64,000 nucleotides of DNA. Source: an uncultured Desulfobacteraceae bacterium (GTDB taxonomy: Bacteria > Desulfobacterota > DSM-4660 > Desulfatiglandales > HGW-15). Below, one piece after another: positions 1 through 47,047 of the stretch. The notes beneath the pieces were generated by a model. The model did no database searches and was not told the origin of the DNA. It was given only the letters and a program-made list of their open reading frames with translations. Position numbers and translations under genes: made by a program. The stretch spans positions 7,526 to 71,525 of the forward strand of contig CAZFMX010000004.1 in the NCBI GenBank assembly GCA_964520425.1, written 5' to 3'. Position 1 is the first letter of the stretch. Each line of letters begins with the position of its first letter.

Positions 1-985
1 CTTCCAGGGCGGAAAGATCAGGTGTTTGACCGATGGCCGGAATGACCTGGTCGAGTTCCATATCAAATTCACTCCCAGGTATGGGGACCGGCCTTCTTCT
101 ACCCGACGAGTCGGGCTCCCCAAGTTCCATGCGAATACACCGCAGACCAATCACCCTGTCGTCCTGGAGGAGGACTTCCTGGGGGGCTGAGAGAAAGGAG
201 ATCTTCACCCCTTCCTCCTCTGCGGCCTCGACTTCTTCCTCCCAGGCCGGCATCTCCGCGCGAGTCCTTCGGTAGATGATAGTGACTTCTTCGGCCCCTA
301 GCCGGACTGCGGAGCGGGACGCGTCGATGGCCACATTACCGCCGCCGACGATAGCCACTCTTCTTCCCACAGCCGCCTTACCCTTAAGGTTCAGTTCTCT
401 AAGAAAATCCACACCCTGTCGTACACCCTCAGCCTCATCACCGGGGATACCCATCTCAATCCCTCTATGGGCCCCAGTAGCCAGATATATGGCCTTGTAG
501 CCTTGATTCAATAGGGTTTTGACCGTCAAATTCGGGCCCAGGGGCGTGTCGGTCCTGATCTCCACACCCAGGTTGGTGATGACCTCGATCTCCCGATCCA
601 GAATGTCTCGAGGAAGACGATGCTCAGGGATGCCCACCCGCAGCATGCCGCCGGCTTTGGGCAGGGCCTCAAAAATCGTGGATAAGACCCCTTTCCGTGC
701 TAGATGATAGGCCGCGGAAAGCCCCGCAGGGCCCGAGCCGATGATAGCCACCTTCTCCTCCCTTGGAGGGAGACATTCAATCTCTATTTCCCGGGGATCA
801 AACTGGTCGGCTGCAAGGCGTTTCAGGTCCCGAATGGCTATCGGATCATCCACATCACACCGACGGCAGGCATCTTCACATCCATGGGGACAGATTCTGC
901 CGAGCACACCGGGCAGGGGGAGATCTTGCATAATGATTTTCAGGGCCTCTTTGTATTTCCCCTGTCCCACCATCTGTACATACCC
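1..985. repeat. Copy 1 of a >=985-bp perfectly identical segment shared by the two hdrA paralogs
   Basis: It is identical to 11397-12381, and the first mismatch is at 986 vs 12382. The antisense ORF-track translations 33..275, 276..500 and 519..707 are identical to 11429..11671, 11672..11896 and 11915..12103. Confidence 0.9.
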
Positions 986-1534
986 TTGCACATTCAATCC
1001 CGCGGGGCAGGCTAGACGGCAGGGGGCTTTGTTCACTTTCTGAATGGCAAAGGCCCCCGGAATGGCTTGGGCATATTTTTTATAGGTTGCTTTTCTGGTG
1101 GAAAGACCCTGGTCGTATTCATTGGGGAGTTCTACAGGGCAGACCCTCGCACAGTCGCCACAGGCCGTGCACTTTGCCTCATCAATGTAGCGAGGAATTC
1201 TGCGAAGGGAGACTTTGAAGTTCCCCTGAGCACCACTGACCTTCTCCACGTCAGCACATGTGATCAAATCTATATTCAGATGCCGGCCGACCTCGACCAG
1301 TTTAGGAGAAATGATTCACATAGCACAATCGTTGGTAGGAAAGGTCTTGTCCAGTTCACTCATGACACCGCCGATGGCGGGGGACTTCTCCACAAGTTTG
1401 ACCAGATAACCGGAATTAGCCAGATCCAGAGCAGCCTGCATCCCGGCAATTCCGCCACCGACCACCATCACCGAGCCTGAGGGTGTATCAAGTCTTTCTT
1501 CAGTCATTATGTCTTCCCTTTCCAGTTTGACCAT
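1..1534 (-). CDS. hdrA: HdrA-like FAD/Fe-S oxidoreductase with GltD/NfnB-like insertion, predicted selenocysteine-containing paralog (partial; 3' part lies left of the window)
   Basis: The minus-strand frame is open from ATG 1534 to the window edge except for TGA at 1316-1318. Motifs are [18 protein letters not shown] (FAD fold), [10 protein letters not shown]-[TGA][12 protein letters not shown], [12 protein letters not shown], then GltD-type [10 protein letters not shown]...[14 protein letters not shown] and [13 protein letters not shown]. It is colinear with the 1482-aa protein at 8464..12912. Confidence 0.85.
1316..1318 (-). other. In-frame UGA, predicted selenocysteine codon of the hdrA paralog
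   Basis: It aligns exactly with Cys67 (TGT, 12712-12714) of the paralog in the motif DCAM-C/U-(M/I)ISPK. The frame continues open for 1315 nt downstream. Confidence 0.75.
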
Positions 1535-2723: not shown

Positions 2724-4211
2724 TTAGGGGCTTTTCCCATCTTCCCTTATAACCGGTAGCAATATTCTAAAAGTAGTTCCTTTATCAGGAACGCTTTCCA
2801 CGTCAATCGTACCATTATGACTTTCTACCACACCTTTTACTATGGTGAGTCCCAATCCTGTACCTGTCACATTACGAGTCTTTTTGTTTTTTATACGGTA
2901 AAACTTGTCAAAGATCTTAGGGAGTTCTTCCGGGTCAATGCCTACTCCCGTGTCACTTACTTTGATTTCCATATATTCCCCCAGGACCTGGGCATTCACT
3001 TCGACCCGACCCCCTTCAGGAGAATAATTGATGGCATTGGTGACAAGGTTATTGAGGATCTCTTCAATTCCTTTGGGATCCGCATGAACGGGCTTCATGT
3101 TCTTGCAGGAGTCAATAAGGGTAATTCCCTGCTTCTGGGCCCTGGGCTTCAACAGAGAGAGGGTATCCTTGATGAGTGATTCGATATCCGTAGGCACTCG
3201 ATGTTGTACCTGTTTTCCCTCTTCAAGCTTCGCGATGTCCAAAAGATCATTGATCAGCTCAAGGAGTTGGTCTATTTTCTTTACTCCCTTTCCTAGGAAT
3301 TCCTCCTGCTTTTCCCCAAGAGGACCGAGTAACCCCTCTAGAAGGACAGTGTTTTGTTGCCTGATGGAAATCAATGGACTTCGGAGTTCGTGGGCTACCA
3401 TATTTATAAAATCTGATTTCATCTCGTCGAGTTGTCTAAAGGCGGTGATATCCTGCAAGACCGTGACTGTCCCGACGAGCCCATCATCGGGGCCGAGGGC
3501 TGGTGCCGAAATGGCCCTCAGGACCATTTTCCCGGCGCTGATTTCCTGGGACACGAACTCATCTCTTGCAGATTCACCGGTCTGGATACCCTCAAGTGTA
3601 TTTCTCAGAGCCCTGTCATCTATAATCTGATTCACTAATACGGGATTTTCGACCTTTCCCGATATCTCCAGCAGCCTCATCAATGCGGGATTGTGAAGGA
3701 CAACTTCCAGGTTGCGGTTAGTGACCATTACACCATCAGCCATACAGTTGATTATGGTCTTCAGCCGGCTTTTTTCCAGGTCGAGATCATAGAGGTTTCT
3801 CAATTTCTCCTCTTCATATGAGTGGGCTCTCTTTTCAAGCGCCCTCTTTTCGGCAGCCCGATTGATGGTTAAGAGAAACTGATCGATCTGGAAAGGCTTG
3901 GTTATAAAGTCATAAGCGCCCTGCTTCATACAATCCACGGCGGTATCCACGGTTCCATGTCCCGTGATAATGATGACCGGGATGTCCGGATATTGAACGC
4001 GCGTTTTTTCCAGGACCTCCTCGCCACTCATGACAGGCATTTTCAGGTCGAGCAGGATAACATCTACGGTCTCTTTGTTCAGCAGATCCACAGCCTTTTG
4101 TCCGTTTTCAGCGGTCAAGACCTCATATCCCTTTCCCGTTAACACACGGCTGCATCCCTCCCTAACAACCTGCTCGTCATCTACAACCAATATCTTTGTT
4201 TTATGATCCAT
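2724..4211 (-). CDS. Hybrid response-regulator receiver / PAS / histidine kinase
   Basis: It has an N-terminal receiver (ILVVDDEQVVRE...LLDLKMP), an H-box MVAHELRSPL, and HATPase_c boxes (NAINYSPEGG, DTGVGI, GTGLGLTIVKG). Confidence 0.85.
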   Translation of the reverse strand: MDHKTKILVVDDEQVVREGCSRVLTGKGYEVLTAENGQKAVDLLNKETVDVILLDLKMPVMSGEEVLEKTRVQYPDIPVIIITGHGTVDTAVDCMKQGAYDFITKPFQIDQFLLTINRAAEKRALEKRAHSYEEEKLRNLYDLDLEKSRLKTIINCMADGVMVTNRNLEVVLHNPALMRLLEISGKVENPVLVNQIIDDRALRNTLEGIQTGESARDEFVSQEISAGKMVLRAISAPALGPDDGLVGTVTVLQDITAFRQLDEMKSDFINMVAHELRSPLISIRQQNTVLLEGLLGPLGEKQEEFLGKGVKKIDQLLELINDLLDIAKLEEGKQVQHRVPTDIESLIKDTLSLLKPRAQKQGITLIDSCKNMKPVHADPKGIEEILNNLVTNAINYSPEGGRVEVNAQVLGEYMEIKVSDTGVGIDPEELPKIFDKFYRIKNKKTRNVTGTGLGLTIVKGVVESHNGTIDVESVPDKGTTFRILLPVIREDGKSP

Positions 4212-4253
4212 GATGAATGATAGCCCTTCTCCGAATTAACCGCTCGTGCTCAA

Positions 4254-5825
4254 TCAATTATCCAATCCGACAAAAAGAGGTTCTTCCGAGGTCCTCGCCA
4301 CAAATCCCAGGGGGATCTCGATAACGAAGGTGGTCCCTCCCTCAGGAGGAGAGTCTATGGCAATGCTGCCACCGTGCAGAGAAATAATGTTCTTGGTAAT
4401 CGTCAATCCCAGACCTGTTCCCTTTCCAGGGGCCTTGGTAGTAAAGAAAAAATCAAAGATCTTTTCCCGCATGTTCTCCGGGATACCTGGACCGGTATCA
4501 GAAACGCGGATATGGAACTGATTCTTTTCAGGTTCAAACCGCGCTTTGATATCCAGACGGCCGTTACCTTCCATGGCGTCTGCGGCATTCATGAAGAGAT
4601 TGGTAAAGACCTGCTGGAGCTGGGCCATGTCACCCACCATGCTGGGCAGGTCCGAATCTATTTGTTTGGTGATGGATATATTTTGAAAAAGGGCCTGATT
4701 GACCAAGAGAACCAGTGTCTTGTCAATCAATTCAGCTAAACTGAAAGAGGATATTTTGCCCACGGACTGCCTGCTAAACTCCAGTAGATCGGATACAATC
4801 CTTTTACATCTTAATGTCTGTTGAATGATTTCGTTTGCGTCATTGAAGTATTGGGGATTATCCTTCAAATTCTCCTTGAGCAGTTCGGCGAAGATCAGGA
4901 TGCCGGACAGAGGGTTATTGATTTCATGAGCGACACCGGCGGCCATTCTGCCTATAGATGCGATTCTCTCTGATTCCACCAGTTGGAGGTGGGCATCCTC
5001 CAGGTCTTTTCTCATCTGGAGAACTTCCCTCATATCCCTAAAGACCCCGACACTGGCTGTCTCCTTGCCGTCAATAGTGATGATAGAGGCGGATAAGGTG
5101 ACCGGAATTTTCTCACCTTCCTTTGTGGTGATCGTCATGTTGGTAGGATTTAATTTCCCTGGAGGCCCGTGCCGGTCACTGCGCATCTTCTGCATGTTTT
5201 CTTTTGCCACATCTATGTCATAGAAGCTGCTTAAATGACCCATATCCGTCATCTCCCGGGCCGAGTATCCTGTCAGTGCTTCCATCCCTTGATTCCAGAT
5301 CAGGACGTTTCCTTTGGTATCAGAGACAACAATGCCGTCCACAGTACTCTGGATCATATTTTGAAAAAAGGTGTTGGATTTTCGGGCTTCTTGTTCCAGC
5401 ATAAATCTTTCCGTCACATCCCTGGATGCTTCAAGAATCTGGACCAATTCACCCTCTTTGTTACAGATGGGGGCAATGGTGACTACGTCATAACGGATTT
5501 CGCCGCTATCATCGAGATATTCGTTGTAGACACTGATGGACCTATTCTCTTTGATCTCGTCAAGGCGCTGCCTTATGTTACAGACTCGGCCAAGTTCATC
5601 ACATGGTTGGTTGAACCCATACCTCACCAAGTAACAAGGTTTGCCCCGGACATCATCATAGCTTAGGCCGAGTTCATTCAGAAAGGGTTGATTCACGGTG
5701 TCAATGGTCATATCCGTGTTGACAACCATGATTCTGTAAGGAATAGAATCTAGGATAAGTTGTGTATGGTTCTTGTCTTTTTCTCGGGAATCCGTTCCCT
5801 CTTTTCCTAATTCCATCTTTTCCAT
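4254..5825 (-). CDS. PAS-domain sensor histidine kinase
   Basis: It has PAS-like repeats, an H-box GVAHEINNPL, an N-box NLFMNAADAM, and G-boxes DTGPGI and GTGLGLTITK. Confidence 0.85.
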   Translation of the reverse strand: MEKMELGKEGTDSREKDKNHTQLILDSIPYRIMVVNTDMTIDTVNQPFLNELGLSYDDVRGKPCYLVRYGFNQPCDELGRVCNIRQRLDEIKENRSISVYNEYLDDSGEIRYDVVTIAPICNKEGELVQILEASRDVTERFMLEQEARKSNTFFQNMIQSTVDGIVVSDTKGNVLIWNQGMEALTGYSAREMTDMGHLSSFYDIDVAKENMQKMRSDRHGPPGKLNPTNMTITTKEGEKIPVTLSASIITIDGKETASVGVFRDMREVLQMRKDLEDAHLQLVESERIASIGRMAAGVAHEINNPLSGILIFAELLKENLKDNPQYFNDANEIIQQTLRCKRIVSDLLEFSRQSVGKISSFSLAELIDKTLVLLVNQALFQNISITKQIDSDLPSMVGDMAQLQQVFTNLFMNAADAMEGNGRLDIKARFEPEKNQFHIRVSDTGPGIPENMREKIFDFFFTTKAPGKGTGLGLTITKNIISLHGGSIAIDSPPEGGTTFVIEIPLGFVARTSEEPLFVGLDN

Positions 5826-6314: not shown

Positions 6315-7247
6315 TCAAACCTTGGGTCTTGGAAGGAGACCGGCTCTCTCTGCGATCTCCGGGACTTTGTGTTCCCATTCGATGGCCATGAGATGAACAC
6401 CGGCTACACCTTCCATCTCTTTAAATTCTTCAATCTGCTCGAGTGCGAATTTGATGCCCTCTTCAGCTACTTTCCCTTTTCCCGCTCCTCTCAGTCTATT
6501 GATCAGAGATTCGGGCACATCCATGCCGGGGACCGCTTTGGCCATATACTGGGCCATACCAAGGCTTTTCATGGGGGTGACTCCGGCCAAGATATAGCAC
6601 TTCTCATGAAGACCCATATCGACCACCTTTTTCATAAAATCCCTAAAGATATCCATATTGTAAATGCATTGGGTCTGAACGAAATCCGCCCCTGAGGCGA
6701 TCTTCTTTGCGAGTCGGTGAACCCGGAATTCAATGGGATCTGCAAATGGGTTGGAGGCAGCCCCTATAAAGAGCCTGGGCGAGACATCAAGCTGCTCCTC
6801 ATTCAGGAATTTGCCCTCATCCCGCATCTTTTTGGCTAGGGAGATAAGTTGCATGGAGTCTAAGTCAAAGACGTTCTTGGCCTGGGGGTGGTTCCCAAAA
6901 CGCTGGTGATCGCCGGAAAGACAGAGCATGTTTCGGATGCCTAAAGTATAGGCGCCCAGGATATCACTCTGCATGGCCAAACGGTTCCGATCACGGCAGA
7001 CCATTTGATAATTGGGCTCAATTCCTTCTTGTATCAATATCGTGGAAGCGGCCCAGCTGGACATTCTAACCACCGCTGTCTGGTTATCGGTGATATTGAC
7101 CGCATCTACCATCCCTTTCAGGTGGGCAGCCTTTTCCTTGAGATGGTCCGTATTCGCGCCCTTTGGGGGACCACATTCGCCGGTAAAGGTAAAGTGCCCG
7201 GCTTTGAGGACCTTTTCAAGATTGCTTCCAGATTTCAGATCGTTCAT
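6315..7247 (-). CDS. metF: Methylenetetrahydrofolate reductase, acetogen-type MetF
   Basis: The 310-aa product has MTHFR motifs (MVCRDRNRLAMQSDILGAYTLGIRNMLCLSGD). Its start overlaps the metV stop by 4 nt, and it is the last gene of the hdrCBA-mvhD-metVF string. Confidence 0.85.
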   Translation of the reverse strand: MNDLKSGSNLEKVLKAGHFTFTGECGPPKGANTDHLKEKAAHLKGMVDAVNITDNQTAVVRMSSWAASTILIQEGIEPNYQMVCRDRNRLAMQSDILGAYTLGIRNMLCLSGDHQRFGNHPQAKNVFDLDSMQLISLAKKMRDEGKFLNEEQLDVSPRLFIGAASNPFADPIEFRVHRLAKKIASGADFVQTQCIYNMDIFRDFMKKVVDMGLHEKCYILAGVTPMKSLGMAQYMAKAVPGMDVPESLINRLRGAGKGKVAEEGIKFALEQIEEFKEMEGVAGVHLMAIEWEHKVPEIAERAGLLPRPKV

Positions 7248-7912
7248 TCTACCAGTCCCTCCTTAGCACTCTTTCGGGGCCCGCCGTCCCTTGAGGTCTG
7301 CCAATCCTTGGCTGGTGTTATTCGGAGTAGATCCTCCAGACGGCCCTGTTCCATTTTCTTTCTCACGATCATGTCCCAGACACAGTCAACTTCCCTTGAG
7401 ATCTCACACTTTCCCTTGGCCGAACCGCCACAAGGCCCGTTGAGGAGGTTTTTAGAACAACGAGCAACGGGGCATAGACCGCCGGTCAGGTGGAGGATGC
7501 AGTCTCCGCACATAAGACAGCGCTCAGTAAACAAACCCGGTCCCTCAACTACACCGATGAAAGTGGTGTTGAGTCCGGGCAGAATGATCTTCTCCGGCCA
7601 TTTCTCGGAGGTGAACTGGACCCCGGCCCCGCAGGCGATGGAGAGAACGGCGTCGGCCCACTCGATCTGTTCTTTCGCGGAATCGAAGAATTCGTGTTCG
7701 CACTGCCGCTCGATTCCCCCATTCTTGATGTCGATCTCTATACCTTCCTGTTTGGCCTTCATCCTCAACATGGAGGCCAAGATCTCTGCTTCCTTATTCC
7801 CCCCCTCGTGGCAAATGGCCACGCAGGTGTTGCATCCGAAGATCAAGACCTTCCTGTATTCTTTGATCATGTCCCAGATGACTTCGAAGGATTTTTGTTT
7901 CCCGACAATCAT
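7244..7912 (-). CDS. metV: MetV (Cys-rich MTHFR small subunit, MTHFR C-terminal-like domain)
   Basis: It carries the Cys clusters CNTCVAICHEGG and CLMCGDCILHLTGGLCPVARCSKNLLNGPCGG. It sits between mvhD and metF. Confidence 0.8.
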   Translation of the reverse strand: MIVGKQKSFEVIWDMIKEYRKVLIFGCNTCVAICHEGGNKEAEILASMLRMKAKQEGIEIDIKNGGIERQCEHEFFDSAKEQIEWADAVLSIACGAGVQFTSEKWPEKIILPGLNTTFIGVVEGPGLFTERCLMCGDCILHLTGGLCPVARCSKNLLNGPCGGSAKGKCEISREVDCVWDMIVRKKMEQGRLEDLLRITPAKDWQTSRDGGPRKSAKEGLVE

Positions 7913-7918
7913 CTTAAT

Positions 7919-8443
7919 CTACTCCTTTCCGGAGTACTTGGATTCCGTTCCAGAATATCTGGATTCCGCAAGCCGAATGGGGGAGGGACCGAGCTTTTTG
8001 ATCTTCTCTGTAAACTCGGTACAGATTTCCGCCCATCTGGGTCCCATGGCTGCGGAAAGGTTATACATCTCAAGCCGTTCCGGATCAATATCAACCTTAA
8101 TTAATAGATTCTTTAGATACTCAATCCTCTTTCTGGCGTTTGTATTTCCTTCCAGGAAATGACACTGTCCGGGCAGTCACCCGGCAGCAAATACGCCGTC
8201 CATGCCTTTCTCGAACGCGCGAAGAACATAGATGTGGTCCAGCTTGCCTGTGCAAGGGAGCCTGATGATCTTTACGTTTGTAGGATAGGAGAGCCGCATG
8301 ACCCCAGAGAGGTCTGCGGCCGCGAAAGCGCAATAGTGGCAGGCAAAGGCCAGGATGTTGGGCGACCAGTCCGAAGGGATGTCGTGCGGTTTCTCTACGG
8401 AGGAGGTATCCTCCTGTGCCACGGTTGAAGCTTCTTCTGTCAT
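7919..8443 (-). CDS. mvhD: MvhD-like [2Fe-2S] protein, predicted selenocysteine-containing (174 aa with read-through)
   Basis: The ORF-track stub 8177..8443 ends ...DGVFAAG-TGA. The same frame continues LPGQCHFLEGNTNARKRIEYLKNLL...FTEKIKKLGP to TAG 7919-7921, matching the MvhD signature GC(U)xxGxCH(Y/F)xxGN. Confidence 0.8.
8144..8160 (-). promoter_or_regulatory. Candidate bacterial SECIS hairpin for mvhD
   Basis: On the mRNA a 6-bp stem AUUUCC/GGAAAU with loop UGGAA starts 16 nt after the UGA. It was found by eye only. Confidence 0.4.
8177..8179 (-). other. In-frame UGA, predicted selenocysteine codon of mvhD
   Basis: It sits where MvhD/VhuD family proteins have the first Cys of the G-C-x-x-G-x-C-H motif. 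Confidence 0.75.
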
Positions 8444-8463
8444 GTTCTCTCTATCTTTCCTCC

Positions 8464-11400
8464 CTACATGCTCGTTCCTTCGGCCAGTGTATCTATCATG
8501 GCCAATATTTGCCCGTCTTTGAAGTTATTGACCTGAAATGCCTTGGCCGGACAGACACCCGCACAGATTCCACATCCCATGCATTTGACCTCGTTGTGGC
8601 TTACCTTGCCCTCTTCGTCGATATAGGGTGAATCAAAGGGACAAACTCTGAAGCATGTGAGACAGGACATGCAGATATCCCGGTTGTGCTTGGAAATAAT
8701 CCCGGATACGGCCAGTTTGTCCTGAGACAGGATGACACCGGCGCGACCGGCAGCGGCTAGGGCCTGGGAAATAGTTTCATCCAGATTCTTGGGGGCATGG
8801 GCCAGTCCGCACAGGAAGATACCCTCGGACGGAAAGTCTACGGGACGAAGTTTGACGTGGGCCTCCAGCAGGTAGCCCTCCGGATTGCGCGTCAGTTTGT
8901 AAATCTTGGCGACCTCTTCTGTCGTTGGGTGCGGTCTGAGGCCCGTGGAAAGCACCAGCCAGTCCGCTTCAAACTCGACTTCTCGGCCGAGCATATCATC
9001 GAAGGTCTTGACCCGAAGATTGTCTTCTGAAACCTCCACCTGAGGTTTCCTTTCCGGGATATAGTTTACAAAGATCACGCCCAAATCGCGCGCCTTAAAG
9101 TAGTAGTCTTCCCTGAGCCCGTATGTCCTGATGTCACGATAGAGGATGATGACCTGTGTATCAGGCGAGTGTTCTTTGATGGCGATAGCGTTCTTTATAG
9201 CGTCCTGACAGCAAATACGGGAGCAGTAATTATCAGGCTCCTCTCTGGAACCCACACACTGGATCATGACATATTTTTCGCCCGCTTGAACGCCATGATT
9301 GGCTGCAAGCCTCTTCTCCAGCATTCGCTGGGTGATCACCCTGTCGTTCTCCCCGTAAAGGTATTCCTTGGACTCATATTCGGTACCGCCAATGGCCACG
9401 ATAATAGCCCCATGCTCGAACGATGTTCCGTCAGTCAGGGTTGTCTTGAAGTTGCCCACAAAACCATCAGTGGATTTGACCTCAAGCCCCGTGTGAATGG
9501 TGATGCGCGGGTGGGCCTGGATCTCTTCGATTTTGGTCTTTAAAAAACCCTGCACATCGCTTTTATCCAGTGTATGAAAAAGATTGCGAGCCAGACCGCC
9601 CAGGTCAATCTCCTTTTCCACCAGGTGGACATCAAAACCCTGATCACCCAGTGAAAGGGCCGCGGTGATGCCGGCTACTCCGCCGCCAATGACCATGGCC
9701 CCGGGAATCACGCCCACCGAGTCGGTGGTGACCGGCTCCAGCAGCCTGACCTTGGCTATATTCATTTTAACAATGCTGATGGCCTTTTCTGTGGCATCTT
9801 CATTCTGTCCCATGTGACACCAGGAGCATTGCTCGCGGATATCGGCAAGCTCGAACAAATACTTGTTCAGTCCGGCTTCACGGATAGTGTCCTGGAACAG
9901 GGGCTCGTGGGTTCTTGGTGTGCAAGAAGCCACCAAGACCCTGTTCAAATTTTTCTCCTTGACGATCTCCTTTATTCGCTCTTGTGTGTTCTGTGCGCAG
10001 GCGTACATTGTATTTTCAGCATGTATAACGCCCTGTTCACCTTTCACAGATTCGACCACCTTTTCCACATCTACGGTCTGGCTGATATTGATTCCGCAGT
10101 GACAGACGAATACCCCGATTCTGGGCTCTTCTTTGGTGATGTCTGTTTCCGGCGGGAGTTCTCTGGTCACCGTCTCTGTGCCCCTGGCCTCACCCAGCAA
10201 AGCCATAGCCTCTCCCGCTACAGCGCTTCCCTGCATCACGGTCTCGGGTATGTCCTTGGGGGATTGGAATATACCCGTGACAAACACACCATCTTGAGAG
10301 GTATTAACCGGCTGAAATTGGGTTGTTCTGGGAAAGCGGTGGTCATTGAGCGCAATATCAAAGGTCTTGGCCAAATCATCCACGTCCGAGTGGGGCTGAA
10401 AGCCGATGGAGAGGACGACCATGTCAAAGGTTTCGTCCACCAGGGTTCCATCCTCTTTAGCATAGCGCAGCACCAGGTTACCTGTTCCGGGTTCTTCCCT
10501 TATTGCCGAGATCATGGCCCGTTGATACCGGACGCTGTAGTCGTTCTTGGCACGATCCACATACTTGTCAAAGTCCTTTCCAAAGGCTCTCAGCTCCATA
10601 AAGAAAATGGTGGGATGAATTCGGCTATCATGTTCGGTGGCAATAATGGCCTGCTTGGTGGCATACATACAACAGACCGAAGAACACCAGGGATTGGCAT
10701 TGTGTCGGTCCCGGGATCCTACACATTGAATCCACGCGATTTTTTCAGGATGCTTTCCGTCGCTGGGGCGCTTGACCGTTCCCTGGTACGGGCCGGACGC
10801 GGAAAGGATGCGCTCAAACTGAATGGACGACACCACGTTGGGCCAACGGCCAAACCCCAGTTCCTGTCGGACGCCGGCGTCATAGCGGGCGAGACCTGGG
10901 GACAGAATAATGGACCCCACATTGATTTCCATGGTCTCGGGTTGCTGCGCGTGGGTCTCCAGTGTTACCGCTCCAGGAAGACAGGCCTCCACGCACTGAA
11001 AACACTCGCAGCAATATGAACAATTCAAACACCGATGGGCCTCTGTCTGACCGGTCTCTATATCCAGACCCAGCTCCACTTCCTTGAAGTTTCCTTCTCG
11101 CTTTTCAACAGGCAACTCCGGCATTTTGGCTCGATCCTTCTTGTGTTGGCCTTTTGGAATAGGACGGTAGACCGGATCCTCTTTGGTGATGGGTTCCCGT
11201 CCCTCGGCCATGTCCCGTCCGTCCAAATAACGGACAATGGATTCGGCTGCCTCCCGGCCTGAGGCAACGGCACCAATGGCCACCCATGGACCGGTCTGCA
11301 CATCTCCACCCGCAAAAACACCGTCGCAGTTGGTGGCATAGGTGATGGAATCCGTTTCAACCGTACCCCACCGAGAGAATTCCAGACCGGATATCTCTTC

Positions 11401-12912
11401 CAGGGCGGAAAGATCAGGTGTTTGACCGATGGCCGGAATGACCTGGTCGAGTTCCATATCAAATTCACTCCCAGGTATGGGGACCGGCCTTCTTCTACCC
11501 GACGAGTCGGGCTCCCCAAGTTCCATGCGAATACACCGCAGACCAATCACCCTGTCGTCCTGGAGGAGGACTTCCTGGGGGGCTGAGAGAAAGGAGATCT
11601 TCACCCCTTCCTCCTCTGCGGCCTCGACTTCTTCCTCCCAGGCCGGCATCTCCGCGCGAGTCCTTCGGTAGATGATAGTGACTTCTTCGGCCCCTAGCCG
11701 GACTGCGGAGCGGGACGCGTCGATGGCCACATTACCGCCGCCGACGATAGCCACTCTTCTTCCCACAGCCGCCTTACCCTTAAGGTTCAGTTCTCTAAGA
11801 AAATCCACACCCTGTCGTACACCCTCAGCCTCATCACCGGGGATACCCATCTCAATCCCTCTATGGGCCCCAGTAGCCAGATATATGGCCTTGTAGCCTT
11901 GATTCAATAGGGTTTTGACCGTCAAATTCGGGCCCAGGGGCGTGTCGGTCCTGATCTCCACACCCAGGTTGGTGATGACCTCGATCTCCCGATCCAGAAT
12001 GTCTCGAGGAAGACGATGCTCAGGGATGCCCACCCGCAGCATGCCGCCGGCTTTGGGCAGGGCCTCAAAAATCGTGGATAAGACCCCTTTCCGTGCTAGA
12101 TGATAGGCCGCGGAAAGCCCCGCAGGGCCCGAGCCGATGATAGCCACCTTCTCCTCCCTTGGAGGGAGACATTCAATCTCTATTTCCCGGGGATCAAACT
12201 GGTCGGCTGCAAGGCGTTTCAGGTCCCGAATGGCTATCGGATCATCCACATCACACCGACGGCAGGCATCTTCACATCCATGGGGACAGATTCTGCCGAG
12301 CACACCGGGCAGGGGGAGATCTTGCATAATGATTTTCAGGGCCTCTTTGTATTTCCCCTGTCCCACCATCTGTACATACCCCTGTACATTCAATCCCGCG
12401 GGGCAGGCCAAACGGCAGGGGGCTTTGTCCATCTTTCGGATGGCATAGGCGCTCGGAATGGCTTGGGCATATTCTTTGTAGGTTGCTCTTCTGGTGGAAA
12501 GACCTTGCTCGTATTCATTGGGGAGTTCTACAGGGCAGACCCTCGCACAATCGCCACAGGCCGTACACTTTGCCTCATCAATGTAACGAGGATTCTTGCG
12601 GATGGTGACTCTGAAATTCCCTTTGGGACCCTCAACCTTCTCCACTTCTGCGCAGGTGATCAGGTCTATATTGAGATGCCGGCCGACCTCCACCATCTTG
12701 GGTGAGATCATACACATGGCACAGTCGCCAGTGGGAAAGGTCTTATCCAACATGGCCATGGTCCCGCCTATGCTTGAATCTTTCTGGACTATATGTACCT
12801 TGAAGCCGGCTTCAGCAAGGTCGAACGCGGACTGCATGCCACCCACACCGCCGCCTACGATCAGGACCGATCCTTTTACTCTATTACCATTTGAGGAGGC
12901 ACTATCACTCAT
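8464..12912 (-). CDS. hdrA: Giant HdrA-like flavoprotein: HdrA module + inserted GltD/NfnB-like NAD(P)H module + second HdrA module + ferredoxin domains (1482 aa)
   Basis: Motifs in order are VLIVGGGVGGMQ; DCAMCMISPKM; GltD-type [22 protein letters not shown]; [13 protein letters not shown] and [15 protein letters not shown]; CVGSRD...CSSVCCMYATKQA; a second MVIGGGVAGITAAL and CVGSREEPDNYCSRICCQDA; and the C-terminal CMSCLTCFRVCP/CMGCGICAGVCP. Confidence 0.9.
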   Translation of the reverse strand: MSDSASSNGNRVKGSVLIVGGGVGGMQSAFDLAEAGFKVHIVQKDSSIGGTMAMLDKTFPTGDCAMCMISPKMVEVGRHLNIDLITCAEVEKVEGPKGNFRVTIRKNPRYIDEAKCTACGDCARVCPVELPNEYEQGLSTRRATYKEYAQAIPSAYAIRKMDKAPCRLACPAGLNVQGYVQMVGQGKYKEALKIIMQDLPLPGVLGRICPHGCEDACRRCDVDDPIAIRDLKRLAADQFDPREIEIECLPPREEKVAIIGSGPAGLSAAYHLARKGVLSTIFEALPKAGGMLRVGIPEHRLPRDILDREIEVITNLGVEIRTDTPLGPNLTVKTLLNQGYKAIYLATGAHRGIEMGIPGDEAEGVRQGVDFLRELNLKGKAAVGRRVAIVGGGNVAIDASRSAVRLGAEEVTIIYRRTRAEMPAWEEEVEAAEEEGVKISFLSAPQEVLLQDDRVIGLRCIRMELGEPDSSGRRRPVPIPGSEFDMELDQVIPAIGQTPDLSALEEISGLEFSRWGTVETDSITYATNCDGVFAGGDVQTGPWVAIGAVASGREAAESIVRYLDGRDMAEGREPITKEDPVYRPIPKGQHKKDRAKMPELPVEKREGNFKEVELGLDIETGQTEAHRCLNCSYCCECFQCVEACLPGAVTLETHAQQPETMEINVGSIILSPGLARYDAGVRQELGFGRWPNVVSSIQFERILSASGPYQGTVKRPSDGKHPEKIAWIQCVGSRDRHNANPWCSSVCCMYATKQAIIATEHDSRIHPTIFFMELRAFGKDFDKYVDRAKNDYSVRYQRAMISAIREEPGTGNLVLRYAKEDGTLVDETFDMVVLSIGFQPHSDVDDLAKTFDIALNDHRFPRTTQFQPVNTSQDGVFVTGIFQSPKDIPETVMQGSAVAGEAMALLGEARGTETVTRELPPETDITKEEPRIGVFVCHCGINISQTVDVEKVVESVKGEQGVIHAENTMYACAQNTQERIKEIVKEKNLNRVLVASCTPRTHEPLFQDTIREAGLNKYLFELADIREQCSWCHMGQNEDATEKAISIVKMNIAKVRLLEPVTTDSVGVIPGAMVIGGGVAGITAALSLGDQGFDVHLVEKEIDLGGLARNLFHTLDKSDVQGFLKTKIEEIQAHPRITIHTGLEVKSTDGFVGNFKTTLTDGTSFEHGAIIVAIGGTEYESKEYLYGENDRVITQRMLEKRLAANHGVQAGEKYVMIQCVGSREEPDNYCSRICCQDAIKNAIAIKEHSPDTQVIILYRDIRTYGLREDYYFKARDLGVIFVNYIPERKPQVEVSEDNLRVKTFDDMLGREVEFEADWLVLSTGLRPHPTTEEVAKIYKLTRNPEGYLLEAHVKLRPVDFPSEGIFLCGLAHAPKNLDETISQALAAAGRAGVILSQDKLAVSGIISKHNRDICMSCLTCFRVCPFDSPYIDEEGKVSHNEVKCMGCGICAGVCPAKAFQVNNFKDGQILAMIDTLAEGTSM
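11397..12381. repeat. Copy 2 of the >=985-bp perfectly identical segment (inside hdrA, GltD-like insertion)
   Basis: See 1..985. It covers about aa 178-506 of the 1482-aa protein. Confidence 0.9.
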
Positions 12913-13784
12913 ATCAAGTTCAACTCCTTCAAGAGGCCGATTGCATCCACAAAATGCCTGTCGATTTGCAGCTCTTCAGGGGATTTGTCCATGGCCACTC
13001 CAATAAGCTCGGTAATGAAGTAGACAGGCATGCTCTGGCCAATGTCATATTTTTGCTTCATCTGTTCCTGGTATGCATCGAGGTTGAGCTGGCACATTGG
13101 GCAGGTAGTGACAAAACAGTTGGCTCCTCTCGCAATGGCGTCCTTAAAAATCTTCGACATGAGCAGGAGCGCGGTATCGGTGTCGTTAACGGTCGCGGAT
13201 GCCCCACAGCAGTCGGTTTTGTAGCTCCAGTCCAAGGGCTTGGCACCGAGGGTTTTGAGAACGATCTCCATCCCCTGTGGATTTTCTACATCGTCGGGCA
13301 CGGGCACATCATATGGGAACCTGGTTTGAAGACATCCGTAGTAACATGCGGGTTCCAGACCCTCGAGTTGCTTGACCGCCTTTTCGGCAAGTTCGCCGGA
13401 CTCGGCCTTCGGTATCAATACCTCAAGAATACTCATAATCCTAATGTTGCTCTTTACTTTTTTGGACAACTCCGCGTTGATTTCGTCCCTTAGTCTATTG
13501 TTAGACGCAAGTCTGTGTTGTGCGACCAGCATCCGGCTATAGCAGGCCGAGCAGGGGATCACCAACTCAGAGAGCCCACAGTCGTCCGCAATACCCAGGT
13601 TGCGTGCGGGCATGGCAACCGACAGGAAGTCGTCGGTCTTGCTGGCAGATGTGGCACCACAGCAATTCCAGTCTTCGAGCTCGTTCAGGTTGATTCCCAT
13701 CTCCCCTAGCACCAACTTGGTCTGTGTGTCATAGAGCTGACTCGATGCGTGTAATGTGCATCCAGGGTAATAGGCAATTTCCAT
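12909..13784 (-). CDS. hdrB: Heterodisulfide reductase subunit B-like (CCG-domain protein)
   Basis: It has two CCG-type motifs (WNCCGATSA; DCCGASATV...CPMCQLNLD). Its stop overlaps the hdrA start by 4 nt. Confidence 0.85.
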   Translation of the reverse strand: MEIAYYPGCTLHASSQLYDTQTKLVLGEMGINLNELEDWNCCGATSASKTDDFLSVAMPARNLGIADDCGLSELVIPCSACYSRMLVAQHRLASNNRLRDEINAELSKKVKSNIRIMSILEVLIPKAESGELAEKAVKQLEGLEPACYYGCLQTRFPYDVPVPDDVENPQGMEIVLKTLGAKPLDWSYKTDCCGASATVNDTDTALLLMSKIFKDAIARGANCFVTTCPMCQLNLDAYQEQMKQKYDIGQSMPVYFITELIGVAMDKSPEELQIDRHFVDAIGLLKELNLI

Positions 13785-14425
13785 TATGTCCCCCTGCTCA
13801 TGTCAGACTCTGTCAGCGGCCCGTTTTTTTTTGCCTTCTTGAGAAGGCGTTTGAGATCTGAAAGGTGTTTGATCTTTTGGATCCCGAAGTGCATGCGTTT
13901 TTTCTTGGTCATACGCAGGCCGAGTTTCGCCTGGAGCATGGTCTCTTTGTATATCTCTTTGAACTTGAAGCGCATGAGGTTGCGGAAGGTGTCCTTCATT
14001 TCATAGAGGCCCATAAATTCGATTTCATTGAGCCTTCCCAAGTGGTTGGCCGCGGTACAGAAGGATTTATGGAAGGCTGCGACTTTTGGAAGGAGTGGAT
14101 CCAGATGCTCCTCTTTGGACATATGTTTGAGGGTCTCGGTGATCTTTGCGGTTTGTATTTCGTTTGGGCAGCGGGTGCCGCATGTATAGCACGACACACA
14201 CTTCCAGACCAGCTTGTTACTGAGGGCCTGTTCCCGGTCGCCGAGCAGTATCATTCGAATCAAACGATCAGGCGTGACATAGCCGGTCTCTTCTCCCACA
14301 GGACATCCTGCAGCACATCGTCGGCACTGATAACAGGCGGTAATGTTCTGCTCTGACCGCGCCATTACCTCATGCACCAGTGCTTGCTTGCTTTCGTGTT
14401 CAAATTTTAAGGCAGGAAGTGCCAT
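13784..14425 (-). CDS. hdrC: Heterodisulfide reductase subunit C-like (2x[4Fe-4S])
   Basis: It has the motifs CYQCRRCAAGCP and CVSCYTCGTRCP. It overlaps the hdrB start by 1 nt. Confidence 0.85.
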   Translation of the reverse strand: MALPALKFEHESKQALVHEVMARSEQNITACYQCRRCAAGCPVGEETGYVTPDRLIRMILLGDREQALSNKLVWKCVSCYTCGTRCPNEIQTAKITETLKHMSKEEHLDPLLPKVAAFHKSFCTAANHLGRLNEIEFMGLYEMKDTFRNLMRFKFKEIYKETMLQAKLGLRMTKKKRMHFGIQKIKHLSDLKRLLKKAKKNGPLTESDMSRGT

Positions 14426-14827: not shown

Positions 14828-16639
14828 GTGTTACCGTCTGGTACAAAAGTCAACCAAATCCTCCAGCTTGCAGAGATGAGGCCCATTATGTTCTTTAGCA
14901 TCAGCCTGTATATTGCTCTGGGTATTTTTGTCCTTGGCCTTTTATGGAGAATCTCCACCTGGTTCCGTTATAGTGTCGGACCCGGAGCCCGGGAGATAAA
15001 GGCATCACAAAGGCTTTTTGCGGCCATTAAGGGAAGTATTCTTACCATATTAAGCCCAAAGATCCTGATTCTTCTGAAAGTCTTTGTCTTAGATGTCCTC
15101 GTCCAAAGAAGGGTATTTGTGGAGAGTCCTCTCCGGTGGGCCATGCATATGTGCATATATGGCGGATTCATGCTTTTACTCCTCATGCATGCCCTTGAAA
15201 AATTTATTACCCTCACACTGTTTCCGGACTATACTTCTACACTCAATCCTTTTCTCTTTCTGAGGACTCTCTTTGGTCTAATCGTCCTGATTGGATTGGG
15301 ACTCTCTTTCTACCGACGTCACATCCTAAAGATACCTCGTCTCATCAGTAATGCTATGGATCATTACATGGTGACCATCCTGGCTATCATCATGGTCTCC
15401 GGTTTTTTGCTGGAGGGGACGAAGATTGTATCTCACAACAAATATCAGGAGATGGTGGAAGACTGGTCAGACGTGGACGATGAAGAATCGTTTGAGGCCT
15501 TGGAAAGTTATTGGGTGGAAAAGTTCGGTGTTGTTTCACCTGATTTAAAGGGGCCCTTTGATGCGGAAACCCTTGCCCTGGGCAAAGAACTGCATGAGAT
15601 GAATTGTGAGGCCTGTCATTCCAGACCTCAGTGGGCGTTCATAAGCTATGGTGTTGCGAAGATCGTTTCGCCTCTCGCCGTTTCACTGGACAAGGCCGGT
15701 GTTCATACGATTCTGTGGTACCTGCATTTTCTGGCCTGTTTCGTAGGCCTGGGTTATCTTCCTTTCAGCAGGATGTTTCATATTTTTGCCGGTCCCTTGA
15801 GTCTGCTTACAAACGCTGTAATGGACAGAGAAAAATCAGACCCCGCCAATATAGCCACGAGGCAGGTGATGGAAATGGATGCCTGCACGCACTGTGGGAC
15901 ATGCAGTTTGCAGTGTTCTGTGGGTGTCCTATTCGAACAGATGCAGAACGTAAACATCCTTCCTTCTGAAAAAATGGCATCCGTAAAAAGGTTCACGGCA
16001 AATAGGATAGCCAAAGAAGTGGACATAAAACGTATTCAGGAGGGACTCTATCTGTGTACCAATTGTTACAACTGCACCCTGGTCTGCCCGGTTGGCATCA
16101 ATCTCCAAGATCTGTGGTTCAACTTGAGAGAGACCTTTATTCAGGATGGTCATCCCGAGGTGTTCACCCTTTCTACACTCTCATTCTATCGCGGGTTGAG
16201 GAAAGATGAGTTGAATGATAAGGATTACGAAAAACCATTGCAGCAGGCCAACCAAGCCCTGGCTGAGAAGTACGTTTTATTCGATTCGCAGGATTCACCT
16301 ATAGATCTTGGATCTCTGGGTAAGAGTTTTGAGAAGGATCTGAGAGCATCAGCTCAAGGAAGTACCTTTTCCTTTTGTTTTACGTGTACAACCTGTACGA
16401 GTGCCTGTCCCGTGGCATGTAATTACGATAACCCCCCGGATACCCTCGGGCTAACCCCTCACCAAATCATGCGTGCCGCTGCCATTGGGCTCCCTGATCT
16501 TATTTATCGCTCAAAAATGCTTTGGACCTGCCTCGGTTGTTATCAGTGCCAGGATGCCTGTCCTCAAGGGGTTCATGTCACGGATATCCTTTATGCATTG
16601 AAGAATATGGCCATAAGGCGTGTAAAAGAGAAGACGTAA
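14828..16639 (+). CDS. Membrane NarI/DsrM/HdrE-like cytochrome b fused to a four-cluster ferredoxin domain (DsrK/HdrD N-terminal-like)
   Basis: It has about 5-6 hydrophobic helices with His pairs (WAMHMCIYGGFMLLLLMHAL, ILWYLHFLACF). These are followed by CTHCGTCSLQCSVG, CTNCYNCTLVCPVG, CFTCTTCTSACPVA and CLGCYQCQDACPQG. The true start may be ATG 14876 (MRPIMFF...). Confidence 0.75.
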   Translation: MLPSGTKVNQILQLAEMRPIMFFSISLYIALGIFVLGLLWRISTWFRYSVGPGAREIKASQRLFAAIKGSILTILSPKILILLKVFVLDVLVQRRVFVESPLRWAMHMCIYGGFMLLLLMHALEKFITLTLFPDYTSTLNPFLFLRTLFGLIVLIGLGLSFYRRHILKIPRLISNAMDHYMVTILAIIMVSGFLLEGTKIVSHNKYQEMVEDWSDVDDEESFEALESYWVEKFGVVSPDLKGPFDAETLALGKELHEMNCEACHSRPQWAFISYGVAKIVSPLAVSLDKAGVHTILWYLHFLACFVGLGYLPFSRMFHIFAGPLSLLTNAVMDREKSDPANIATRQVMEMDACTHCGTCSLQCSVGVLFEQMQNVNILPSEKMASVKRFTANRIAKEVDIKRIQEGLYLCTNCYNCTLVCPVGINLQDLWFNLRETFIQDGHPEVFTLSTLSFYRGLRKDELNDKDYEKPLQQANQALAEKYVLFDSQDSPIDLGSLGKSFEKDLRASAQGSTFSFCFTCTTCTSACPVACNYDNPPDTLGLTPHQIMRAAAIGLPDLIYRSKMLWTCLGCYQCQDACPQGVHVTDILYALKNMAIRRVKEKT

Positions 16640-16664
16640 GGCCTTCTAACCGGAGATTAGTATC

Positions 16665-17567
16665 ATGGATTTTGCCATACAACGCTGCTGCGTAACACCT
16701 ATGTATCTGAAATCATACAACAGCTCAACGGATGCAGTCCTAAGGACACTTGATATAGGATTCGTGGACATCAAGGAATTCAACTGCTGCGGGTACCCTT
16801 TGAAGGATATTGACCTAAATGCCTACGTCCTCGCTTCGGCAAGAAATTTGTGTCTGGCTGAAAAGAGCAACCTAAATGTCATGACATTCTGCAACTGCTG
16901 TTACGAGAGCCTGAAAGAGGCGAAACATCTCTTGAGAGAGGATGAGTCCATAAAGAGGGACATAAATGAGAAATTGATGAAGGAAGACCTGGAATATAGC
17001 GGTTCCACGAAAGTGAGGCATCTGCTGGAGGTACTTTACACTGATGTGGGTTTAGAGGCCTTAAAAGAAAAAGTGGCCATGTCCTTTAAAGGCTTGAAGA
17101 TCGCAGTACATTATGGCTGCCATATTCTGCGTCCAAGGCAACTGGTTCAGTTCGATGATCCTGGAACGGCTAAGGTGTTTGATCAGCTGGTTGAGATTAC
17201 AGGAGCAGAGATTGTTCCATGGGAAGCCCAGCTCGACTGCTGCGGGGCCCCCGCGTGGGGAATAGATGATGATCTTTCCATGGATCTGACTCAAAAAAAG
17301 ACCAGGGATGCCCATCAGTCCGGCGCCGATTTTATCTGTGTTGCCTGTGCCTATTGTCAGCTTCAGTTCGATAGAGTTCAGAAGATGCTTCTTTCCAAGA
17401 GAGGGGAGGACAAGGGCCTCCCTTCAATCCTTCTTACACAGCTCCTTGGTCTGAGTTTAGGTGTTGATTCAAAGACCCTTGGAATTGACCAAAACGAACT
17501 GGATGCGATGGGAATTACACATTTTCTATCCTCCGAAGAATCCTCCACGCCATTAGAAGTTGCTTAA
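16665..17567 (+). CDS. HdrB/HdrD C-terminal-like CCG-domain protein
   Basis: It has the CCG motifs FNCCGYPL and LDCCGAPAWG...CAYCQLQFD. It lies 25 nt after the membrane Fe-S protein. Confidence 0.8.
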   Translation: MDFAIQRCCVTPMYLKSYNSSTDAVLRTLDIGFVDIKEFNCCGYPLKDIDLNAYVLASARNLCLAEKSNLNVMTFCNCCYESLKEAKHLLREDESIKRDINEKLMKEDLEYSGSTKVRHLLEVLYTDVGLEALKEKVAMSFKGLKIAVHYGCHILRPRQLVQFDDPGTAKVFDQLVEITGAEIVPWEAQLDCCGAPAWGIDDDLSMDLTQKKTRDAHQSGADFICVACAYCQLQFDRVQKMLLSKRGEDKGLPSILLTQLLGLSLGVDSKTLGIDQNELDAMGITHFLSSEESSTPLEVA

Positions 17568-45592: not shown

Positions 45593-46983
45593 AAGAGATT
45601 GTCAAAAAACTTCCAGAATCGATTATACAACCCATCAGATACATGATGGGTTGCCTTCCTCCACGGCTTCGATATGGAAGGGTCTTTCGGCAATCTTATG
45701 ATTTTCTGGAGAACTCCCAATGGTGGAGCAGGGAGAGGCTTCAAGAGTATCAGATGAATCGATTAGAACACCTCTTGCATCATGCCTACCGGAATGTTCC
45801 TTACTATCGATGTGTCTTTAATGAGATGGCTTTGCGTCCTGAGAGTATCAAGGACTTTGGAGATATGAGGAAATTGCCATTCCTGACAAAAACGATCATT
45901 CAGAACAACTTACATGATTTGGTAGCAGAGAATTATCCCAGGTCACGATTGGAGAATGTTTCGACGGGCGGCTCAACAGGAGATCCTTTGGGCTTCTATC
46001 ATGAGAGAGGTATTTCTGAGGCTCGGGAGAGAGCCTTTATCTTTAATTTGTGGAGCAGGATCGGTTTTAAGGCAGGAGATAAATGCATCGAACTGAGAGG
46101 GAATATTCTTCAATCGACAAAGGGAGGCAGGTTCTGGATGTACCATCCTGCGGAAAAGATCCTGATGCTTTCTTCCTATCAAATGACCAATGAGGCGTTG
46201 CCGAAATACGTTGAGAAGATCCGGCAGTTTCAGCCCGATTTCCTTCATGTGTATCCATCTTCAATCATGATTCTGGGCAGATTTATGAAAGAGAGAAGTA
46301 TTCGTCCTTTCCATAGTGTAAAAGCCCTGTTGTGTGCTTCAGAAAATATATACTCTTGGCAGAGAGAGTTGCTCGAGGATGTCTTTCAATGCCGTGTTTT
46401 CAGTTTCTACGGGCACTCTGAGCGGGCTGTTTTAGCCGGTGAGTGTGAAAAGAGTACGTCATATCATATTTCACCGGAATATGGATTTACCGAGATCGTC
46501 AATGAAAAGGGAATACCTGTGGAGAAAGATGGTGAGACCGGGGAAATCGTGGCGACCGGATTTAATAACCAGGCTATGCCCTTTATCAGATACAAAACAG
46601 GGGATATTGCAGTCTATTCCAGCAAGACATGTGACTGCGGGCGGAATTATCCTTTGATTGAAAGGATCCGGGGGAGAATTCAGGATTTCCTTCTTTCCAG
46701 AAAAAACCATTTGATCCCATTAAGCACGATCCAATACGAGGTCTTGGGTGATAGTAATTTTGTTAGGCAGTTCCAATTTTACCAGGAAAAAGCCGGAGAG
46801 GTAGTCGTCAATATCGTTAAGGCGCAAGACTATACGAAAGCAGAGGAACGTCGGATTTCAAGCGCGCTACAAAAAGGTGTAGCAGGAGATATTGAATTTC
46901 ACTTTGAATACAAAGATGAAATTCCAAGAACAAGCAGTGGAAAACGCAGGTTACTGATTCAGAAATTGCCTTCACCAGAATAA
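45589..46983 (+). CDS. Adenylate-forming enzyme, phenylacetate-CoA ligase / F390 synthetase (PaaK/CapK-like), copy 1
   Basis: It has the AMP-binding core STGGSTGDPLGFY, RYKTGD, and a C-terminal SSGKRR. Its start overlaps the upstream stop by 4 nt. Confidence 0.75.
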   Translation: MKEIVKKLPESIIQPIRYMMGCLPPRLRYGRVFRQSYDFLENSQWWSRERLQEYQMNRLEHLLHHAYRNVPYYRCVFNEMALRPESIKDFGDMRKLPFLTKTIIQNNLHDLVAENYPRSRLENVSTGGSTGDPLGFYHERGISEARERAFIFNLWSRIGFKAGDKCIELRGNILQSTKGGRFWMYHPAEKILMLSSYQMTNEALPKYVEKIRQFQPDFLHVYPSSIMILGRFMKERSIRPFHSVKALLCASENIYSWQRELLEDVFQCRVFSFYGHSERAVLAGECEKSTSYHISPEYGFTEIVNEKGIPVEKDGETGEIVATGFNNQAMPFIRYKTGDIAVYSSKTCDCGRNYPLIERIRGRIQDFLLSRKNHLIPLSTIQYEVLGDSNFVRQFQFYQEKAGEVVVNIVKAQDYTKAEERRISSALQKGVAGDIEFHFEYKDEIPRTSSGKRRLLIQKLPSPE

Positions 46984-47047
46984 CGATGTCTTGGCATGAA
47001 TGAAGCGTGCACTCATTCTGTCAATATAAGGAGTATGTCAGAAATAA

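Follow-up and report, generated by a model that had tools for sequence, protein, structure and literature searches.

A conserved in-frame UGA, very probably decoded as selenocysteine, joins the two halves of an mvhD gene in an uncultured Desulfobacteraceae bacterium

Proteins of the MvhD/VhuD/FrhD family (PF02662, COG1908) are among the established prokaryotic selenoprotein families (PMC9312934, PMC13188914), and a 2026 review gives two selenocysteine (Sec) residues and a CxxU motif for the MvhD/VhuD family (PMC13188914). The genome of Desulfobacterium autotrophicum HRM2, reported in 2009, carries four Sec-containing mvhD genes (mvhD1, 2, 3 and 5), each of them adjacent to an hdrA or hdrL gene, together with Sec-containing hdrL genes, and all of its hdrA or hdrL loci but one are associated with an mvhD gene (PMC2702500). 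MvhD is also a component of the HdrABC–MvhD–MetVF methylene-tetrahydrofolate reductase, described from Moorella thermoacetica and also from other anaerobes (PMC5736913, PMC6085437). Sec-containing MvhD/VhuD has been known for decades in methanogens (PMC13188914) and since 2009 in Deltaproteobacteria (PMC2702500), and the gene described here is little new in kind. Here we analyze a 64,000-nucleotide (nt) stretch of DNA from an uncultured Desulfobacteraceae bacterium (assembly GCA_964520425.1, contig CAZFMX010000004.1), hereafter the window, in which an mvhD gene immediately preceding metV contains an in-frame UGA. We put the probability at roughly 93% that mvhD is one intact gene encoding a 174-residue MvhD/VhuD-type [2Fe-2S] electron-transfer subunit, with the UGA at codon 89 specifying Sec. 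The parts of the locus are as follows:

7919..8443, minus strand: full mvhD coding sequence, 174 codons plus TAG, with the in-frame UGA as codon 89.
8177..8443, minus strand: N-terminal fragment of 88 amino acids (aa), annotated as the whole gene by gene callers.
8177..8179, minus strand: UGA codon, very probably read as Sec (residue 89), on the basis of Cys homology, TGA conservation and VhuD alignment.
7919..8176, minus strand: C-terminal 85 codons plus stop, hidden inside an apparent intergenic gap.

The 88-codon open reading frame (ORF) begins with an ATG at 8443 on the minus strand and ends ...FEKGMDGVFAAG-TGA, with the TGA at 8179-8177 and GMDGVFAAG as the last residues before it. Past the TGA the mvhD frame runs on without a stop over a further 85 codons, U-LPGQCHFLEGNTNARKRIEYLKN...KLGPSPIRLAESRYSGTESKYSGKE, up to a TAG at 7921-7919, and a spacer of 6 nt (ATTAAG) separates this stop from the metV ATG at 7912. 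Translation confirmed the read-through product that a sequence-only reading of this DNA had proposed, U-LPGQCHFLEGNTNARKR... running to the TAG at 7919-7921, 6 nt before the metV ATG, and the tryptic peptide predicted across the UGA is GMDGVFAAG-U-LPGQCHFLEGNTNAR. The coordinates of that reading were all right to within one base: the apparent non-coding gap it described is present at 264 nt rather than 265, and the poor 61-aa out-of-frame ORF it noted in the gap exists at 7909..8094 with a TTG start and has no Pfam match. The window contains, over its six frames, ~43 bridges where the frame remains open past a TGA, so that openness alone is little evidence; what carries weight is that Pfam matches flank the TGA, that the TGA is conserved and that a hairpin downstream of it is frozen.

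With C put for U, the read-through product matches PF02662 (FlpD/MvhD) over positions 1-123 of 123 (E = 3.6e-47). Taken separately, the 88-aa fragment aligns no further than FlpD profile positions 1-59 and the 85 residues after the UGA align to positions 62-123; the two are complementary parts of PF02662, and the UGA lies inside the domain. In the best 120 full-length homologues from the protein collection (at most 77% identical), the UGA column is occupied by Cys in 117, Trp in 2 and a gap in 1, in agreement with placement of Sec at the first Cys of the G-C-x-x-G-x-C-H motif. The two homologues derived from the Joint Genome Institute (JGI), P0009 and P0021, have Trp at the Sec column (VAG-W-LEGQCH), which suggests that their source pipeline translated TGA under a TGA=Trp code. 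Comparison with VhuD/MvhD selenoproteins, put forward earlier as a check, gave a concordant result: Methanococcus maripaludis VhuD (9sfi_K) aligns at E = 2.9e-37 and carries non-standard residues (X) at two sites, one equivalent to Cys38 (C-x-x-X) and the other exactly at the UGA-aligned residue (VFVAG-X versus VFAAG-U), which agrees with the two Sec residues given in the review.

The five conserved Cys positions of the family are 35, 38, 64, 89 and 94 in the numbering of the mvhD product. PMC13580544 describes MvhD Cys16 as an additional conserved cysteine between the cluster and FAD, and an offset of 22 in the 5odc_D and 9sw2_D alignments equates Cys16 with Cys38 of the mvhD product. We found no explicit list of MvhD [2Fe-2S] ligands in the literature, only this statement on an additional Cys16. 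By elimination among the five conserved Cys, we infer that C35, C64, U89 and C94 are the four [2Fe-2S] ligands, with Sec89 probably one of them. Read-through would restore the missing half of the cluster site, since U89 and C94, two of the four presumptive ligands, are placed at or past the UGA.

We examined conservation of the UGA at the DNA level in a genome scan using one genome per species, which returned 80 loci of 68-92% identity from Desulfatiglandales, Syntrophobacteraceae, Desulfobacteraceae, Thermodesulfovibrionales, other Nitrospirota and one Chloroflexota metagenome-assembled genome. The codon at the UGA position is TGA in 78 of these 80 closest genome loci and TGT or TGC in 2. A metagenome scan seeded with a Cys-type protein (P0002) found TGA in 79 of 80 loci, bringing the combined count to 157 of the 160 closest loci. 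The tblastn matches in relatives cover residues 1-167, through the TGA, and the best genome-representative match to the locus is 92% identical. In 79 TGA-type genome loci, the window among them, no stop interrupts the mvhD frame over the 68 codons past the TGA, compared with 158 and 215 stops in the two alternative frames. Downstream of the TGA these loci differ from the window mostly at third positions (7/5/31 by codon position for the relative L002), as they do upstream (6/1/26 for L002), and by this pattern the frame downstream of the UGA is evidently translated. The read-through ORF just reaches, or overlaps, the metV start (MIVG...) in most of the relatives inspected. We looked for relatives encoding a genuinely short MvhD followed by a separate small ORF, the arrangement named in advance as speaking against Sec, and found none among the relatives compared, all of which have either TGA with a conserved downstream frame or TGT or TGC (TGY). 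The identical locus is also present in two independent Logan assemblies (SRR14802572 and SRR14802574), where gene calls likewise give an 88-aa FlpD and then a gap.

Just past the UGA lies the candidate selenocysteine insertion sequence (SECIS):

8144..8160, minus strand: putative SECIS core hairpin AUUUCC(U)-GGA-(A)GGAAAU, proposed from conserved pairing, frozen synonymous sites and bacterial SECIS (bSECIS) criteria.

The hairpin AUUUCC-UGGAA-GGAAAU runs from 8160 to 8144 and starts 16 nt past the UGA, exactly where the sequence-only reading had put it, and it can be drawn in two forms, as 6 bp with a UGGAA loop or as 7 bp with a GGA loop. Published bSECIS criteria call for a 3-9 nt loop, a 4-16 bp stem, a G in the first two loop positions, the loop pattern N1-G-[G|U]-N-N2, a distance of 16-37 nt from UGA to apical loop and a minimum free energy (MFE) of -7.5 kcal/mol or lower (PMC13188914). 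The UGGAA loop fits this pattern, the stem of 6-7 bp is within range, and the UGA-to-loop distance of 22 nt (UGGAA) or 23 nt (GGA) lies within 16-37 nt. The region +3..+48, core hairpin included, has an MFE of -10.0 kcal/mol and the core alone -5.1 to -6.9 kcal/mol, which places the two on either side of the -7.5 criterion; over +3..+48, 147 of 158 relatives are at or below -7.5 kcal/mol. By this geometry, by the retention of 7 of 7 hairpin pairs in all 158 TGA-type genes and by their decay in Cys-type genes, the hairpin first suggested as a plausible SECIS behaves as one.

Pairing was assessed in an ungapped alignment of the 79 TGA-type genome genes (75 distinct sequences), in which every cell of the 7 pairs is paired (100%). 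Five pairs are invariant, one changes from U-A to U-G, and one, pair 35-45, flips between U-A (37 distinct sequences) and A-U (38) and is broken in none. RNAalifold recovered exactly the 7-pair helix and no other conserved structure within 60 nt past the UGA. The flip corresponds to a Phe (UUC) to Tyr (UAC) replacement combined with a synonymous Gly change from GGA to GGU, and separates Nitrospirota-type from Desulfobacterota-type loci. Synonymous sites provide stronger evidence than pairing covariation. All 158 TGA-type genes have CAT, CTG and AAT at codons +6, +8 and +11, and codons +7/+10 are TTC/GGA in 78 and TAC/GGT in 80; at other residues of the gene with the same degree of conservation, two to four codons alternate freely. 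As a control we used 11 Cys-type genes encoding the same H-F/Y-L-E/D-G-N peptide, with DNA retrieved protein by protein; these use CAT/CAC in 8/3, CTG/CTT/CTC/TTG in 5/3/2/1, AAT/AAC in 4/7 and all four Gly codons, and keep all 7 pairs intact in only 3 of 11. Codon use differs between Sec-type and Cys-type genes with Fisher p values of 2e-4 to 1e-11, uncorrected for shared ancestry. Codons frozen in TGA-type genes and drifting in Cys-type genes with the same peptide therefore point to an RNA constraint tied to the UGA. The Cys-type genes that carry the full 7-bp hairpin, L163 (TAC/GGT) and L012 and L161 (TTC/GGA), look like recent Sec-to-Cys conversions in which the SECIS has not yet decayed.

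Two further structures were considered and set aside. A lower stem at 8141..8164 on the minus strand, adding 3 UGU/ACA pairs (8164-8162 with 8143-8141) with a bulged C, appears in the window MFE fold and is paired in only 74% of cells in relatives. A UGA-enclosing hairpin, CCGGGU-GACU-GCCCGG at 8184-8169 on the minus strand, needs Pro at +2, a position held by Glu, Lys or Gln in most relatives, and is lineage-specific, confined to the window and a few close relatives with Pro at +2.

In the proposed mechanism, SelB carrying Sec-tRNA(Sec) would bind the hairpin 16 nt past the UGA through the AUUUCC/GGAAAU stem and U-GG-A-A loop, Sec would be delivered at the UGA in place of termination, and the product would gain the C-terminal half of its domain, including Cys94.

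Several results weigh against this reading. The fold energy of the single sequence is not significant (z = -1.19), so the SECIS case rests on the relatives; there, the lone covarying pair follows the phylum split and probably records one evolutionary event, and the core hairpin taken alone is weaker than the -7.5 bSECIS cut-off. Rfam at gathering thresholds returned no match over the whole window, SECIS families included, and at E up to 10 the regions of this UGA and of a second in-frame UGA described below gave only chance matches to one microRNA and one long non-coding RNA family. A search limited to the 64-kb window found no selA, selB, selD or tRNA-Sec gene and no tRNA gene of any kind; ORFs at 43667-48436 have the right sizes for SelB and SelA but encode a heparinase-like protein and two AMP-dependent ligases. 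For residue 89, the putative ligand role derives by elimination from one sentence in PMC13580544. Finally, the product scores 141.7 bits against NCBIfam NF045873, described as F420-non-reducing hydrogenase VhuD, below the cut-off of 215; this score argues against VhuD orthology, not against PF02662 membership, and the protein should not be filed as a VhuD orthologue.

We weighed three other explanations of the locus. Read-through of the UGA without the Sec pathway, through near-cognate suppression by tRNA-Trp or tRNA-Cys or through reassignment of TGA to Trp or Gly, would be in keeping with the Trp at the UGA column of P0009 and P0021, but is very improbable: TGA terminates 15 of the 44 long ORFs in the window, and the genetic code is therefore standard, not reassigned; the hairpin under constraint just past the UGA shares its G-G loop and its spacing with bacterial SECIS elements and decays in genes with TGY at this codon; and the aligned residue is Cys in homologues and a non-standard X in the solved VhuD, a protein with two Sec residues (PMC13188914). 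Scarcely credible is the idea that some other factor binds at the frozen hairpin codons, or that these codons cause a translational pause or reflect local codon bias, with Sec inserted through a different element; covariation limited to a single pair and probably a single event, the short AU-rich core stem and the lack of an Rfam family match all fit it, but the constraint exists only where the codon is TGA and is relaxed in Cys-type genes for the same peptide, position, loop sequence and spacing agree with the published bSECIS model, and RNAalifold finds no competing conserved structure within 60 nt past the UGA. A true stop, leaving a pseudogene or truncated 88-residue MvhD and 264 nt of non-coding remnants, reproduces the gene callers' annotation of exactly an 88-aa ORF plus a gap and accords with Sec machinery not being visible within the window, but can practically be dismissed given a TGA kept in 157 of 160 related loci across phyla, a downstream frame that is stop-free in 79 loci and changes by third positions, a downstream peptide that matches the second half of PF02662, and an 88-residue fragment that would lose two of the five conserved Cys positions, 89 and 94. 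Together, TGA conservation, the stop-free downstream frame, the third-position pattern, the standard code and the identical assemblies argue strongly against sequencing error, a pseudogene, a split gene or a reassigned code, and we retain Sec at codon 89 as the reading of this gene.

The mvhD gene belongs to a co-directional minus-strand cluster of hdrC, hdrB, hdrA, mvhD, metV and metF, which spans 14425..6315 and whose genes overlap or are separated by short gaps:

6315..7247, minus strand: metF, methylenetetrahydrofolate reductase (Pfam PF02219, E = 1.4e-40).
7244..7912, minus strand: metV, DUF5981 / methylenetetrahydrofolate reductase (MTHFR) C-terminal protein (Pfam PF12225, E = 1e-34).
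8464..12912, minus strand: Cys-type hdrL, an HdrA/GltD-type fusion of 1482 aa (Pfam Pyr_redox_2, Fer4_20 and Fer4).
12909..13784, minus strand: hdrB-like gene with CCG domains (Pfam).
13784..14425, minus strand: hdrC-like gene, 4Fe-4S dicluster protein (Pfam).

The 1482-residue fusion corresponds to HdrL as named in the D. autotrophicum genome paper (PMC2702500); its gene lies directly upstream of mvhD and encodes DCAMCMISPK where a paralogue in the window has U. From gene order and published complexes, we infer that the mvhD product would serve as the electron-transfer link in an HdrCB–HdrL–MvhD–MetVF methylene-tetrahydrofolate reductase complex of the Wood-Ljungdahl pathway. The 6-nt mvhD–metV spacing would allow translational coupling. 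Sec in ~98% of the closest Desulfobacterota and Nitrospirota relatives, a probable ligand at residue 89 and a metV start 6 nt past the stop raise the further idea that the UGA and SECIS also make the gene cluster selenium-dependent; we consider this unlikely, and if true, UGA termination under selenium limitation would remove MvhD and uncouple metVF translation. On this reading a selenium-ligated [2Fe-2S] cluster might also tune the potential of the bifurcating enzyme's electron entry point.

A second in-frame UGA occurs at the window start, in the Sec-type paralogue of hdrL:

1..1534, minus strand: Sec-type hdrL (hdrA/gltD fusion), running off the window start, with a TGA at 1318-1316 in TNDCAM-U-IISPK.

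The sequence-only reading had called mvhD a second selenoprotein gene, and this hdrA/gltD fusion at 1534..<1, with DCAM-U-IISPK, is the other. DCAM-U-IISPK is the CxxU motif of HdrA selenoproteins (PMC9312934, PMC13188914), and a 7-bp hairpin with an AGGU loop, CUGGUCG-AGGU-CGGCCGG, lies at 1300-1283, 15 nt past the hdrL UGA. Gene callers report only a 72-aa ORF here, at 1316..1534. A second in-frame-UGA gene in the window gives indirect support for a selenium trait of the genome and counts in favour of the Sec reading of mvhD. The Sec-type and Cys-type hdrL paralogues share a 985-nt perfect direct repeat (1-985 and 11397-12381), past which their identity decays from 96% to 82% and on to about 50% towards the 5' ends; this pattern fits either gene conversion between the paralogues or assembly collapse near the contig end, and the repeat may extend beyond the window start.

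The C-terminal tail of the mvhD product carries a short duplication, as had been pointed out:

7925..7966, minus strand: two 21-nt copies (ESRYSGT / ESKYSGK), identified by comparison with the relative L001.

The two copies of the 7-aa tandem duplication, at 7966-7946 and 7945-7925, are identical at 16 of 21 bases. Tandem Repeats Finder (TRF) does not score this repeat; it is the comparison with L001, the nearest relative, that marks it as a lineage-specific in-frame insertion of 7 codons, as L001 is without exactly 7 residues (LAESKHSGKE versus LAESRYSGT-ESKYSGKE). The insertion lies in a variable tail outside the domain and implies no function.

On the plus strand, divergent from the hdr-mvhD-metVF cluster, 14828-17567 is by its matches a further Hdr-like module: one product, of 603 aa, contains two dicluster regions resembling HdrC/GlpC, and the other, of 300 aa, resembles HdrB (TIGR03288, E = 1.2e-71, short of that model's cut-off). 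A second MTHFR gene, metF2 (292 aa, 1640-2518 minus), stands without an adjacent metV just upstream of Sec-type hdrL, and 2724-5825, between metF2 and the metVF cluster, encodes a hybrid histidine kinase/response regulator and a PAS histidine kinase. The stretch at ~29700-59700 holds a large XrtA/PEP-CTERM-type exopolysaccharide locus, with a priming glycosyltransferase, a chain-length determinant/tyrosine kinase, a PEP-CTERM-associated ATPase, several glycosyltransferases and WecB. Among the compared loci, L168, from a 6.36-Mb genome, has two divergent FlpD/MvhD genes side by side (756-1247 minus and 1501-2019 plus) outside a metVF context.

These data bear on how such genes are counted. Of the best 120 protein matches almost all are Cys-type, and of the 160 nearest DNA loci 157 are TGA-type; protein databases hide this Sec-type majority because gene calling truncates its genes. 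Genes of this mvhD clade are cut almost without exception to an 88-residue stub followed by a false intergenic gap, while ~98% of the nearest relatives would be selenoproteins. Surveys of called proteins will accordingly count too few complete Hdr-MvhD-MetVF clusters and put selenium dependence too low in sulfate reducers, syntrophs and Thermodesulfovibrionia. Modestly useful by-products are a clean, phylum-spanning SECIS with an internal Cys-type control and a presumptive Sec at a [2Fe-2S] ligand position.

Comparison with described systems places the gene among bacterial Sec-containing MvhD proteins. The mvhD product shares with M. maripaludis VhuD, in which the [2Fe-2S] cluster passes electrons to the HdrA flavin, the same fold family and a non-standard residue at the aligned position. 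VhuD has a second Sec in its N-terminal C-x-x-U, whereas the mvhD product keeps Cys38, and the partner of VhuD is a [NiFeSe] hydrogenase, whereas gene order suggests MetVF as the partner of the mvhD product. Unlike archaeal VhuD, mvhD has one Sec, and its putative bacterial SECIS falls within the coding sequence, whereas those of archaea are usually found in the 3' untranslated region, not just past the UGA (PMC13188914). Relative to the bacterial SECIS consensus (bSECISearch model, PMC13188914 Fig. 2), the mvhD element is likewise a stem-loop 3' of the UGA with an N1-G-G-N-N2 loop and a 6-7 bp upper stem, and differs in an AU-rich, weak core stem (about -5 to -7 kcal/mol), in having no conserved lower stem and in being nearly invariant across two phyla. 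The gene set and order hdrC-hdrB-hdrA-mvhD-metV-metF match those of the Moorella cluster (2014 work cited in PMC5736913 and PMC6085437), from which the locus differs in that HdrA is a 1482-residue HdrA/GltD-type fusion; mvhD here is Sec-type. In D. autotrophicum, HdrL1-MvhD is followed by dsr genes, whereas mvhD here runs into metV-metF (PMC2702500). The D. autotrophicum HRM2 MvhD is also a bacterial (Desulfobacterota) PF02662 Sec protein encoded directly downstream of an HdrL fusion, and Sec and Cys hdrL paralogues occur both in the HRM2 genome and in the window (PMC2702500).

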